Origin: Escherichia coli
GTDB taxonomy: Bacteria > Pseudomonadota > Gammaproteobacteria > Enterobacterales > Enterobacteriaceae
NCBI RefSeq assembly: GCF_024502345.1
Contig: NZ_JALDNN010000001.1
Length of the DNA stretch: 64,000 nt
Direction: 5' to 3' (one strand)
A model generated the notes under the pieces. The model was not told where the DNA came from and did not search any database. It saw only the letters and a list, made by a program, of their open reading frames with translations. Positions 6,930-11,079 of this stretch are shown piece after piece (position 1 is the first letter of the stretch; each line of letters starts with the position of its first letter). Both the position numbers and the translations under genes were made by a program.

Positions 6930-8114
6930 TTAAACGGGCTGCCCCTGATGCGACATCCGCGTCGCCAGCGGCAGCCAGCACAGCACGATCAACAATCCCA
7001 TTAAGGTCATCAATAACCCCAGGCTACCCTGACCGGTTTGCGGCAACATCGCAGAGAGCGACGCCAGCACGCCGGAACCAATGTTTTGCAGACCGCCGAC
7101 CAGCGCGCCAGCCGTGCCCGCCAGGAAGGGGAACGGCTCCATCGCGCCGCTGGTCGCCAGCGGAAACAGCATCCCGGCACCGAAAAAGAACAGCGCGGCG
7201 GGAACGAGCAGCGTCCAGACATTCATCACGCCAAACCAGTCGGGGATCCACATCAGCAAGCCAGCCAGCAGGCAGCAGATAACCGACTGCCACATTAACG
7301 TGGAGAAGCGTTTATTGGGACGTCCGGCAAACCATGCGCCAAAAAACGCTGCCGGAATCGGCAGAATAAACAAAATACTGACCGTCATACTGCTCAGCCC
7401 TAACACCGCGCCCATCAGCACGCCGGAGCAGGCTTCAAAGGCGGCAATCCCGGCCAGACCGCCAATCAGCATCAGCAAATAACAGTTAAAACCGCTGTTA
7501 CCGAAAAGCGTTTTATAACTGGTAAGCAGGCGCGTGCGCGGTGCATCGACAGGACGCGTTTCCGGCATCCAGCGGGCCATACTGAAGGTCACACCAGCAC
7601 AAAGAACCAACAAAAAGAGATAACAGGCGCGCCAGTTCCACATCGTATCCAGCAGACCGCCGATTAGCGGTGCGAGCAACGGACTGACGAGAATCCCCAT
7701 GTTTAACAGGCTGTTAGCATGGCGCAACTGTGTCCGTTCATATAAATCTCGCGGCAAAGTACGCGCCATTACGCCGCCAACGCCGGTGCCCATCCCCTGC
7801 ATCGCGCTGGCGGCAATCAACACCGTCAAACTGGAGGTCGTGACCGCGACCAGCGTTGCCAGCATAAAAATGGACATTCCGACGAGGATCACCGGTCGGC
7901 GACCCACACGGTCGGAAATCGGGCCATAAAACAGCTGTGAGACACCGTAAGTCAGCAGATAAGCGCCCATTACGCTCTGCACCGCCCCTTCACGGACGTT
8001 GAGATCGCGCGCCATATCGGCAATAGCTGGAATATAAATGGTTTGCGCCATCTGACCGACGGCCACGAGTAATACCAACATCAATAACAAATTGACGTTT
8101 CTATGCCTTTTCAT
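6930..8114 (-). CDS. emrD: MFS multidrug efflux transporter
   Basis: 394-aa 12-TM MFS protein; start trimmed to MKRH. Confidence 0.9.
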   Translation of the reverse strand: MKRHRNVNLLLMLVLLVAVGQMAQTIYIPAIADMARDLNVREGAVQSVMGAYLLTYGVSQLFYGPISDRVGRRPVILVGMSIFMLATLVAVTTSSLTVLIAASAMQGMGTGVGGVMARTLPRDLYERTQLRHANSLLNMGILVSPLLAPLIGGLLDTMWNWRACYLFLLVLCAGVTFSMARWMPETRPVDAPRTRLLTSYKTLFGNSGFNCYLLMLIGGLAGIAAFEACSGVLMGAVLGLSSMTVSILFILPIPAAFFGAWFAGRPNKRFSTLMWQSVICCLLAGLLMWIPDWFGVMNVWTLLVPAALFFFGAGMLFPLATSGAMEPFPFLAGTAGALVGGLQNIGSGVLASLSAMLPQTGQGSLGLLMTLMGLLIVLCWLPLATRMSHQGQPV

Positions 8115-8304
8115 TATCACGGATGCTTTTATAAAAATAATTAGAATAAGTCACTACGCATTCCCATAAATGCGGGAGAGGAATCTATCACATTGATGAA
8201 TGCTAGCCAGATATGTGCCGGGAATGGCGAAAAGCAAAACGGCAGAATATGTAAACAAAAGCGGCAATAAATGTTGCCGGAAGGGATTACGTGCGAACTG
8301 TAAC

Positions 8305-8417
8305 CCTCTCCCTGAAAGGGCGAGGGGGAAACCACCGTTCCCTTTCAGAAAATGAGCTAAACATTGCACGGGACGGTCCCCTCGCCCCTTTGGGGAGAGG
8401 GCTAGGGTGAGGGGCAC
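8305..8417. repeat. REP/BIME-like palindromic repeat cluster
   Basis: CCCTCTCCC..GGGCGAGGGGG at 8305-8329 is the reverse complement of CCCCTCGCCC..GGGAGAGGG at 8378-8400. The spurious ORFs 8154..8468 and 8287..8475 are artefacts of this repeat. Confidence 0.6.
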
Positions 8418-8532
8418 AGGCAGCGCAGGTGCAAACATTCTGCTGGTAGAAGAAGCCCCCAACTCCAACCCGCACGCTAAATATAAAAGGGGAGCGGTTA
8501 CCCGCTCCCCTTTGGTGCGACTTGAATCTGAA

Positions 8533-8622
8533 TTACTTCAGGTATTTCAGAACAGCATCAAGCAGTTGCAGTGCTGCAACAATGAGTTTGAGGATAAGAA
8601 TGGCGATATCCACCAGGCTCAT
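8533..8622 (-). CDS. tisB: SOS-induced type I toxin TisB (29 aa)
   Basis: The reverse complement translates to MSLVDIAILILKLIVAALQLLDAVLKYLK followed by a stop. It is below the 60-aa cut-off of the ORF track. Confidence 0.9.
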   Translation of the reverse strand: MSLVDIAILILKLIVAALQLLDAVLKYLK

Positions 8623-8858
8623 ACGCGTCTCCTGTGGTTCAGGAGCACTGCCAGCTGACGTACCTTTCCGCTGCCTGTTGCCAGCTGTTGTGCACGCGGT
8701 ATCTCAAGGAGAAACGTTGTGCTTGTTGACATAACACAGTGTGCTCACGCGGGGTTAAGGCGCTGACGGCACCACCCGTTTCAGCCAGGACTTAGTGCGC
8801 CGGGTAACGATGCGGCCCCCGCATAACACATTGCGTACAGTGATATTATAGAAGTTTG

Positions 8859-8874
8859 CTGTATAAATAAACAG
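8859..8874. promoter_or_regulatory. LexA box (CTGT-N8-ACAG) in the tisAB/istR control region
   Basis: CTGTATAAATAAACAG; on the minus strand it overlaps a TATACA -10 element that is 17 bp downstream of a TTGTCC -35-like hexamer. Confidence 0.7.
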
Positions 8875-8975
8875 TAATTTTTGGACAAAACGCAAACTGT
8901 GATCGATACTCAACTATGTACTAAATACGTCAAAATTCGTGCCGAAATTGCGCGTTCTGCGCGGAACAGGTATAC

Positions 8976-9057
8976 TTTCAGTGTTGACATAATACAGTGT
9001 GCTTTGCGGTTACCAGCCGCAGGCGGCTGACGAAACCTCGCTCCGGCGGGGTTTTTT
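8976..9057 (+). ncRNA. istR: IstR-1-like antitoxin sRNA (approximate ends)
   Basis: A TATACT -10 at 8962-8967 is followed by a ~75-nt segment ending in a hairpin and U-tract (9036-9057). The segment carries a 21/22-nt match (GTTGACATAAYACAGTGTGCT) to sequence inside the tisAB 5-prime UTR at 8733-8754, so the two transcripts would be complementary. Confidence 0.55.
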
Positions 9058-9186
9058 GTTACCTGCAATTCAGTGCAAAACGTGATCAACCCCTCAATTT
9101 TCCCTTGCTGAAAAATTTTCCATTGTCTCCCCTGTAAAGCTGTGCTTGTATAAATATTGTTAAACACAAAACCAACAAGGTCCCCA

Positions 9187-9285
9187 ATGACTACTTCCAT
9201 GTTCAACGCAAAACTACTACCAACTGCGCCATCCGCCGCAGTGGTCGTCGTGCGTGTGGTGGTGGTCGTCGGCAATGCGCCGTAG
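9187..9285 (+). CDS. ivbL: ilvB operon leader peptide (32 aa, Val/Leu-rich)
   Basis: Translates to MTTSMFNAKLLPTAPSAAVVVVRVVVVVGNAP; an attenuator hairpin follows. Confidence 0.9.
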   Translation: MTTSMFNAKLLPTAPSAAVVVVRVVVVVGNAP

Positions 9286-9311
9286 GGACTGGAACAACAC
9301 ACGATTCCAAA

Positions 9312-9343
9312 ACCCCGCCGGCGCAAACCGGGCGGGGTTTTTC
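9312..9343 (+). terminator. ilvB attenuator (rho-independent terminator)
   Basis: CCCCGCCGG..CCGGGCGGGG stem followed by a T-tract, between ivbL and ilvB. Confidence 0.8.
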
Positions 9344-9390
9344 GTTTAAGCACCTCCCGGAAAGTCGGCCCAGAAGAAAAGGACTGGAGC

Positions 9391-11079
9391 ATGGCAAGTT
9401 CGGGCACAACATCGACGCGTAAGCGCTTTACCGGCGCAGAATTTATCGTTCATTTCCTGGAACAGCAGGGCATTAAGATTGTGACGGGCATTCCGGGCGG
9501 TTCTATCCTGCCTGTTTACGATGCCTTAAGCCAAAGCACGCAAATCCGCCATATTCTGGCCCGTCATGAACAGGGCGCGGGATTTATCGCTCAGGGGATG
9601 GCGCGCACCGACGGTAAACCGGCGGTCTGTATGGCCTGTAGCGGACCGGGTGCGACTAACCTGGTGACCGCCATTGCCGATGCGCGGCTGGACTCCATCC
9701 CGCTGATTTGCATCACCGGTCAGGTTCCCGCCTCGATGATCGGCACCGACGCCTTCCAGGAAGTGGACACCTACGGCATCTCTATCCCCATCACCAAACA
9801 CAACTATCTGGTCAGACATATCGAAGAACTCCCGCAGGTCATGAGCGATGCCTTCCGCATTGCGCAATCAGGCCGCCCAGGCCCGGTGTGGATAGACATT
9901 CCTAAGGATGTGCAAACGGCAGTTTTTGAGATTGAAACACAGCCCGCTATGGCAGAAAAAGCCGCCGCCCCCGCCTTTAGCGAAGAAAGCATTCGTGACG
10001 CAGCGGCGATGATTAACGCTGCCAAACGCCCGGTGCTTTATCTGGGCGGCGGTGTGATCAATGCGCCCGCACGGGTGCGTGAACTGGCGGAGAAAGCGCA
10101 ACTGCCTACCACCATGACTTTAATGGCGCTGGGCATGTTGCCAAAAGCGCATCCGTTGTCGCTGGGTATGCTGGGGATGCACGGCGTGCGCAGCACCAAC
10201 TATATTTTGCAGGAGGCGGATTTGTTGATAGTGCTCGGTGCGCGTTTTGATGACCGGGCGATTGGCAAAACCGAGCAGTTCTGTCCGAATGCCAAAATTA
10301 TTCATGTCGATATCGATCGCGCAGAGCTGGGTAAAATCAAGCAGCCGCATGTGGCGATTCAGGCTGATGTTGATGACGTGCTGGCGCAATTGATCCCGCA
10401 GGTGGAAGCGCAACCGCGTGCAGAGTGGCACCAGTTGGTAGCGGATTTGCAGCGCGAATTCCCGTGTCCAATCCCGAAAGCGTGCGATCCATTAAGCCAT
10501 TACGGCCTGATCAACGCCGTTGCCGCCTGTGTCGATGACAATGCGATTATCACCACCGATGTGGGTCAGCATCAGATGTGGACCGCGCAAGCTTATCCGC
10601 TCAATCGCCCACGCCAGTGGCTGACCTCCGGTGGGCTGGGCACGATGGGTTTTGGCCTGCCTGCGGCGATTGGCGCGGCGCTGGCGAACCCGGATCGCAA
10701 AGTGTTGTGTTTCTCCGGCGACGGCAGCCTGATGATGAATATTCAGGAGATGGCGACCGCCAGTGAAAATCAGCTGGATGTCAAAATCATTCTGATGAAC
10801 AACGAAGCGCTGGGGCTGGTGCATCAGCAACAGAGTCTGTTCTACGAGCAAGGCGTTTTTGCCGCCACCTATCCGGGCAAAATCAACTTTATGCAGATTG
10901 CCGCCGGATTCGGCCTCGAAACCTGTGATTTGAATAACGAAGCCGATCCGCAGGCTGCATTGCAGGAAATCATCAATCGCCCTGGCCCGGCGCTGATCCA
11001 TGTGCGCATTGATGCCGAAGAAAAAGTTTACCCGATGGTGCCGCCAGGTGCGGCGAATACTGAAATGGTGGGGGAATAA
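9391..11079 (+). CDS. ilvB: acetolactate synthase I, large subunit
   Basis: 562-aa ThDP enzyme with the GDGS..N motif region; conserved position. Confidence 0.95.
   Translation: MASSGTTSTRKRFTGAEFIVHFLEQQGIKIVTGIPGGSILPVYDALSQSTQIRHILARHEQGAGFIAQGMARTDGKPAVCMACSGPGATNLVTAIADARLDSIPLICITGQVPASMIGTDAFQEVDTYGISIPITKHNYLVRHIEELPQVMSDAFRIAQSGRPGPVWIDIPKDVQTAVFEIETQPAMAEKAAAPAFSEESIRDAAAMINAAKRPVLYLGGGVINAPARVRELAEKAQLPTTMTLMALGMLPKAHPLSLGMLGMHGVRSTNYILQEADLLIVLGARFDDRAIGKTEQFCPNAKIIHVDIDRAELGKIKQPHVAIQADVDDVLAQLIPQVEAQPRAEWHQLVADLQREFPCPIPKACDPLSHYGLINAVAACVDDNAIITTDVGQHQMWTAQAYPLNRPRQWLTSGGLGTMGFGLPAAIGAALANPDRKVLCFSGDGSLMMNIQEMATASENQLDVKIILMNNEALGLVHQQQSLFYEQGVFAATYPGKINFMQIAAGFGLETCDLNNEADPQAALQEIINRPGPALIHVRIDAEEKVYPMVPPGAANTEMVGE

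Follow-up and report, generated by a model that had tools for sequence, protein, structure and literature searches.

An intact, ordinary copy of the chromosomal tisAB/istR toxin–antitoxin module in an Escherichia coli strain with a minority LexA operator variant

The Escherichia coli sequence analysed here, a contiguous stretch of 64,000 nucleotides that we call the window, contains at positions 8480–9057 what we consider, with a probability of about 0.96, to be an intact and ordinary copy of the chromosomal tisAB/istR type I toxin–antitoxin module. The biology of this locus is already known at textbook level, and an E. coli-wide survey of it has been published (PMC11264685). The pair tisB/istR-1 is the reference system for both SOS-induced persistence and ribosome-standby control. 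For us the locus serves to check quality; it is no discovery and opens no new question. It illustrates that a reading of raw sequence can recognise a small-peptide and small-RNA module that length-filtered open reading frame (ORF) lists leave out, and it now provides exact coordinates for every functional element of tisB/istR in this strain. For phenotyping work on this strain, it helps to know that an intact module is combined with the majority N2S form of TisB and a minority variant of the operator.

The gene order emrD–tisB–istR–ivbL–ilvB is that of K-12, and synteny with the E. coli genomes compared, K-12 included, is full. The locus is flanked by emrD (6930–8120, minus strand) on one side and by ilvB (9391–11079, plus strand), with its ivbL leader peptide, on the other. 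The 621-nt locus was matched at ≥95% identity in 4358 of 5426 complete E. coli genomes, and every match is chromosomal. Identity to the tisB locus of thousands of E. coli genomes is 98–99.8%, and the best match (99.8%) has tisB annotated beneath it. In the K-12 RefSeq record, tisB (29 aa), IstR-1 (73 nt), and IstR-2 (140 nt) are annotated in the same arrangement. An initial annotation, made from the sequence alone, had named the locus tisB-istR and proposed an alignment to the K-12 istR/tisAB sequences as a check. In a three-way alignment of the window, K-12, and the nearest strain, the sequences are collinear, with about nine SNPs relative to K-12 over 8480–9100, and the identification is further borne out by matches to the Pfam TisB and Rfam istR families. 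The same annotation held that no ORF-based annotation would find the locus. This is not so for tisB, which the PGAP pipeline annotates routinely in matching genomes, but it is so for istR in the nearest PGAP-annotated genome, which carries no istR feature; the K-12 RefSeq record does carry one. Apart from this remark and the coordinates of a repeat (below), every part of the interpretation in that annotation was borne out by independent tools.

The window resembles the K-12 tisAB-istR locus (b4618/b4616) in its genomic site between emrD and ivbL-ilvBN and in its divergent architecture. The IstR-1 pairing segment, the standby and pseudoknot region, the ribosome-binding site (RBS), and the promoter hexamers are identical in the two, and the LexA operator lies in the same place. 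The differences are few. The window encodes Ser2 in TisB where K-12 encodes Asn2, and it carries substitutions relative to K-12 at 8858 (A→G, operator position 2), 8879 (A→T), 8922 (C→T), and 8972 (C→G). An A→G difference at 9029 lies in an IstR hairpin, where the window's G agrees with the Rfam consensus. A few further SNPs fall in the terminator loop and in the istR 3′ flank. Finally, the tisAB 3′ flank of the window bears a repeat-containing insert of ∼185 nt, whereas K-12 has a single REP there.

The toxin gene tisB occupies 8533–8622 on the minus strand, stop codon included, and encodes the 29-aa peptide MSLVDIAILILKLIVAALQLLDAVLKYLK. A minus-strand, 29-aa TisB had been proposed from the sequence alone; the small-ORF listing contains exactly this frame, and its product matches Pfam PF13939 (TisB_toxin) with 37.6 bits (cut-off 25; E = 2.1e-9) over residues 4–26 of 29. 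The peptide is identical to K-12 TisB at 28 of 29 residues, the sole difference being N2S (AAC→AGC), and the gene is identical at the DNA level to the PGAP-annotated tisB (WP_000060506.1) of strain FDAARGOS_943. N2S is the majority TisB variant, present in 85% of E. coli; it is toxic, and reportedly more so than the Asn2 form at low induction (PMC11264685). Membrane depolarisation and toxicity upon expression have been demonstrated for both K-12 TisB and the N2S variant (PMC11264685), and we infer from this literature that the peptide would be toxic in this strain as well. The tisB Shine-Dalgarno sequence, read directly from the sequence, is AGGAGA (8628–8633, minus strand). This RBS is reported to be 100% conserved within E. 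coli (PMC11264685), and the Shine-Dalgarno reads AGGAG(A/G) in all 12 loci of other species from which tisB was recovered.

To collect these other-species loci, one genome of each species was scanned with a degenerate istR DNA pattern. The scan returned 17 loci, 14 of which have an Rfam-significant istR. The istR loci come from seven Citrobacter, Salmonella enterica subsp. arizonae and subsp. diarizonae, Pseudenterobacter timonensis, Siccibacter turicensis, Franconibacter helveticus, two Enterobacteriaceae, and a second Escherichia. One Agathobacter metagenome-assembled genome and two Meiothermus contigs (L004, L005, and L014) also matched the degenerate pattern; they lack an istR match and were taken as chance. 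A Clostridiales-1 RNA (RF01699) lies near L004. Among the other-species loci with enough flanking sequence, 12 of 12 encode a 29-aa TisB on the strand opposite istR, with an invariant core LKL(I/M)VA..QLLDAVLK.

The published numbering of the tisAB mRNA allows its 5′ end to be placed. With +1 at 8838, all ten residues numbered in a mutational study of the tisB standby pseudoknot (PMC7708055) agree with the window: C50, C51, G54, C55, U56, G57, C74, A75, G76, and C77. The tisAB RNA is 359 nt long (PMC2577331), so that the primary transcript would span 8480–8838 on the minus strand and end at 8480, just beyond an intrinsic terminator hairpin at 8486–8513. This terminator consists of a 12-bp perfect inverted repeat (repeat family I1) followed by a T-rich tail. 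The −10 hexamer of the tisAB promoter, TATAAT, is read on the minus strand at 8845–8850, 7 nt upstream of +1, and the same hexamer has been published (PMC11264685). The tisB AUG lies at +217 of this transcript, downstream of a long structured 5′ UTR and preceded by its RBS.

A LexA operator sits between the tisAB promoter and the istR-2 promoter. The core CTGTATAAATAAACAG, of the form CTGT-N8-ACAG, lies at 8859–8874, precisely where the initial annotation had placed a LexA box, and the full 20-mer TGCTGTATAAATAAACAGTA spans 8857–8876. As that annotation also had it, the box falls within the divergent promoter region: the 20-mer occupies positions −19 to −38 relative to the tisAB +1, and its far end lies 6 nt ahead of the −35 hexamer of istR-2. 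Within this promoter region, it matches the TACTG(TA)5CAGTA consensus. The bare CTGT-N8-ACAG motif is not significant in 64 kb, where 0.65 occurrences are expected and 45 of 100 shuffled sequences contain at least one match. What makes the box significant is where it lies, how closely it matches the K-12 operator, and that other species keep it. The K-12 operator at the same place is TACTGTATAAATAAACAGTA, with a heterology index of 1.81 (PMC5668327); the window differs from it solely at position 2 (19 of 20 identical). In the other species, a CTG-N10-CAG box stands at the same relative position, ∼60–70 nt upstream of istR, in 14 of 14 loci.

The one operator difference raises an alternative that is unlikely but survives better than the others we weighed, namely that the locus is present and regulated differently in this strain, with G8858 weakening LexA binding and thereby raising basal tisAB and istR-2 transcription, spontaneous TisB production, and persister frequency. 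At position 2 of the operator (8858), the window reads TGCTGT, as opposed to TACTGT in both K-12 and the nearest strain. With a 59-nt probe, the G allele was found in ∼128 of 4352 locus-bearing genomes, a minority that fits the published figure of 93.5% conservation for the K-12 LexA site (PMC11264685), and the 59-mer that spans both G8858 and T8879 has no exact full-length match among the 5426 complete E. coli genomes. Moreover, tisB transcription is documented as leaky even from the K-12 operator (PMC5668327, PMC13159721). Against this, the window retains both the CTGT-N8-ACAG core and the AT-rich spacer unaltered, and two post-transcriptional layers, the 5′ inhibitory arm of the mRNA and IstR-1, remain intact and would dampen leaky expression. 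Because species differ at positions 1–2 of the 20-mer (TA, CA, AA, and AC) but share the CTG/CAG core, a large effect of G8858 on LexA affinity seems unlikely. The more specific proposal, that the G8858 plus T8879 allele measurably weakens LexA repression of both tisAB and istR-2 and so forms a natural ‘leaky’ allele with more spontaneous TisB and more persisters, strikes us as somewhat more doubtful still.

The 5′ UTR of the tisAB transcript carries the elements described for K-12. Nucleotides +1 to +41 (8798–8838, minus strand), placed from the predicted fold and from published work, form the 5′ inhibitory arm whose removal yields the active +42 mRNA; the role of this arm is described in PMC5668327. 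In the minimum-free-energy fold of the +1 mRNA, nt 3–22 pair with nt 85–105, which takes up half of the IstR-1 target, and a hairpin at nt 50–64 that is also seen in the published structure is retained. Because the predicted accessibility of the target is just modestly higher in the +42 than in the +1 mRNA (mean unpaired probability 0.47 against 0.38), thermodynamic folding alone reproduces the published +1/+42 switch only weakly. A stem-loop and a pseudoknot at nt 50–77 of the +42 mRNA (8762–8789, minus strand) form the part of the ribosome standby site that depends on S1; their standby function has been demonstrated (PMC7708055), and this segment is identical to the K-12 sequence.

Alignment of tisAB 5′ UTRs across genera shows that nt 47–85, which contain the standby stem-loop and pseudoknot, are almost invariant, and that nt 1–41 are variable. 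The pseudoknot pair 54–77 is G-C in nine sequences, G-U in three, and A-U in one. An RNAalifold consensus of the 13 tisAB 5′ UTRs was unlike the published structure and contained no compensatory pairs, and the named helices were tested directly instead. In this test, the +1 helix, the hairpin, and the pseudoknot together have 89.5% of cells paired over the 13 sequences, compared with 28–57% for slid controls, a control that is biased in that the structure tested came from the window's own fold. Covariation is weak: both sides change in three pairs only, and a score as high as the observed one arises in 28 of 500 shuffles.

The antitoxin side of the module is read from the plus strand. Rfam istR (RF01400) matches 8928–9057 over the full model (1–130) with 144.8 bits, threefold the gathering score of 45, and E = 2.2e-31. 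Other Rfam matches in 7800–9800 (P6, STnc310, Termite-leu, and others) are sub-threshold; they lie far below their gathering scores and were set aside as terminator-like chance. A promoter scan places the istR-2 promoter at 8882–8910 (TGGACA, 17-nt spacer, GATACT), and the istR-1 promoter is read from the sequence at 8948–8976 (TTGCGC at 8948–8953, 17-nt spacer, TATACT at 8971–8976); the hexamers of both are identical to the published ones (PMC11264685). Placed from these promoters, IstR-2 would start at ∼8918 and IstR-1 at ∼8983. IstR-2, the 140-nt SOS-induced long form, is assigned to 8918–9057 from the Rfam match and from the K-12 annotation carried over by alignment. IstR-1, the antitoxin RNA of ∼73–75 nt, is assigned to 8983–9057 from the 73-nt K-12 annotation, the fold, and a terminator scan. 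In its predicted fold, IstR-1 leaves its 5′ tail free and then forms two hairpins, of which the second is the terminator (∼9032–9057), with its U-run at 9052–9057. With the transcript ends transferred from K-12 by alignment, the two RNAs would form the nested IstR-1/IstR-2 architecture, with two promoters and a shared terminator.

The two halves of the locus are connected by a direct repeat (repeat family D3). Copy 1, TGTTGACATAACACAGTGTGCT, lies at 8724–8745 and corresponds on the minus strand to mRNA nt +94 to +115, that is, to the IstR-1 target within the single-stranded standby region. Copy 2, TGTTGACATAATACAGTGTGCT, lies at 8982–9003 on the plus-strand, istR side. The copies are identical at 21 of 22 positions and are spaced 258 nt apart. 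A 21/22 repeat had been reported in the initial annotation and does exist, although the coordinates given there (8733–8754 and 8986–9007) deviate by 9 and 4 nt and put the copies out of register with each other. Because tisAB and istR are transcribed divergently, the direct DNA repeat becomes RNA–RNA complementarity. IstR-1 nt 1–21 (8983–9003) are antisense to tisAB mRNA nt +94 to +114, and all 21 positions pair (20 Watson-Crick and one G·U); the single mismatch between the repeat copies (T8993 vs C8735) is a U·G wobble in the RNA duplex. This agrees with the earlier proposal of an IstR-like plus-strand segment complementary to the tisAB 5′ UTR. The duplex formed by the 5′ 25-mer of IstR has a predicted energy of −37.7 kcal/mol, compared with −15.9 ± 2.3 kcal/mol for 1000 shuffled 25-mers (best −24.4; z = −9.4). 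We used the 25-mer in place of a duplexfold of the whole IstR-1 against the mRNA, which ignores intramolecular structure and gave an inflated 70-nt duplex of −78 kcal/mol. The IstR-1 target lies ∼100 nt upstream of the tisB RBS, in agreement with the literature (PMC7708055, PMC4147584). The complementarity of antitoxin to toxin mRNA that characterises type I toxin–antitoxin systems is present in the window.

The locus contains three copies of a 12-nt motif, CATAAYACAKTG: within the IstR-1 target (8730–8741), within the 5′ arm (8822–8833, mRNA nt 6–17), and within IstR-1 (8988–8999). Its core is nearly palindromic. The pairing of 5′-arm nt 3–22 with nt 85–105 in the predicted +1 fold overlaps the target.

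Upstream of tisB, the transcript contains a second open frame, tisA, of 37 codons (8619–8732, minus strand; small-ORF listing). The IstR-1 duplex includes its AUG, at +107, and its stop codon overlaps the tisB start as ATGA. This arrangement, together with >99% conservation of the 37-codon frame within E. coli (PMC11264685), could suggest that tisA is a genuine coding gene alongside tisB and that the two are translationally coupled, as mok and hok are, in which case IstR-1 would act by blocking the tisA start. We consider this very improbable. An in-frame tisA ATG is found only in the window, in K-12, and in Citrobacter sedlakii; the other-species loci otherwise have ACG or an out-of-frame ATG at this place (11 of 12), and TisB stays exactly 29 aa in the loci that lack the tisA ATG. 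Since the start codon is absent elsewhere while TisB keeps its length, the comparison speaks against tisA as a conserved coding gene. In addition, a Pfam search with tisA matched no family, no evidence of tisA translation is reported in the literature (PMC11264685), and the mechanism published for tisB is ribosome standby, not translational coupling (PMC4147584, PMC7708055). We conclude that tisA is probably not translated, and that IstR-1 would act on the standby site.

The IstR-1/target duplex is maintained across species. It can be formed in all 13 other-species loci that include the target region, each with 20–21 of 21 positions paired. At IstR-1 nt 7, six sequences have an A-U pair, six have G-C, and two have an A·C intermediate, and this compensatory change supports selection on pairing. 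That the repeat is instead a chance or purely historical duplication, and IstR a small RNA with other targets that is not the tisB antitoxin in this strain, is scarcely credible: two-copy short repeats do often arise by chance, and IstR-2 carries the same sequence yet reportedly does not repress tisB translation (PMC11264685), but the duplex energy is 9.4 SD beyond that of shuffles, the repeat is kept in 13 of 13 loci with its compensatory change, it coincides exactly with the IstR-1 5′ end and the mapped standby site, and published K-12 genetics and biochemistry demonstrate repression of tisB by IstR-1 through pairing sequences identical to those of the window (PMC4147584).

The mechanism that we propose for this strain joins the elements, positions, pairing, and conservation reported here to literature-derived steps of LexA binding, mRNA processing, standby, RNase III cleavage, and toxicity, which would operate as they do in K-12. 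LexA represses tisAB in K-12 (PMC5668327); bound at 8857–8876, it would cover the tisAB spacer and −35 region, abut the istR-2 promoter, and keep tisAB off until damage triggers LexA cleavage. The 359-nt primary mRNA would be inert, with its first ∼40 nt paired to the region around +85 to +105. Processing at the 5′ end would produce the +42 mRNA, in which the single-stranded standby region and the 5′ pseudoknot are expected to load S1 and the 30S subunit ∼100 nt upstream of the structured, sequestered tisB RBS, as described for K-12 (PMC7708055). IstR-1, made constitutively, would pair through its free 5′ 21 nt with +94 to +114, compete for the standby site so that ribosome loading is blocked, and trigger RNase III cleavage (PMC4147584). 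After SOS induction, tisAB mRNA in excess of IstR-1 would allow synthesis of the 29-aa TisB, which would insert into the inner membrane and collapse the proton-motive force and ATP, favouring dormancy and persistence; in the published system, the excess of mRNA yields TisB, which depolarises the membrane and promotes persistence (PMC4147584, PMC5668327). As far as the sequence tells, all of the determinants of this mechanism are present and are identical to K-12 except for the operator SNP. No observation made here contradicts this account.

The module shares features with other type I systems. Like tisB, dinQ encodes a small hydrophobic toxin whose primary mRNA is inert until 5′ processing, and it is LexA-repressed as well (PMC5668327). 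The sequences of the two systems are not homologous, however, and the peptide and RNA of the window match the TisB and istR families specifically. The hok/sok system likewise follows a type I logic: its full-length mRNA is inert and becomes active through processing, and it too involves an antisense RNA and cleavage by RNase III (PMC4147584). It differs in that hok relies on 3′ processing and on translational coupling to mok, and in that Sok overlaps its target gene in cis, whereas the small RNA in the window is separately encoded and blocks a standby site.

Approximately 1070 of the 5426 complete E. coli genomes (∼20%) have no tisB-istR module, which indicates that the module is dispensable. 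Variation in its presence within E. coli has already been reported (PMC11264685). In strain H105 (locus L003, 1172–1415), for example, ∼140 nt of unrelated DNA lie between ysdE and the ivbL promoter in place of the module.

Several further features lie in the flanking DNA. The ∼185-nt insert lies at 8285–8470, between a ysdE-like ORF and the tisAB terminator, and contains 27-nt inverted arms at 8301–8327 and 8378–8404. It is unannotated and is present at full length at this site in 1497 of the 5426 E. coli genomes. A core of 50–60 nt within the insert occurs at 1–8 places per genome and also on two plasmids. The adjacent 24-codon ORF MNASQICAGNGEKQNGRICKQKRQ (8196–8270, plus strand) is the counterpart of K-12 ysdE (b4798), with several residue differences in the middle of the peptide. 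On the other side of the module, the ivbL leader peptide (9188–9286, plus strand) begins MTTSMFNAKLL and has phenylalanine at position 6, where K-12 presumably has leucine.
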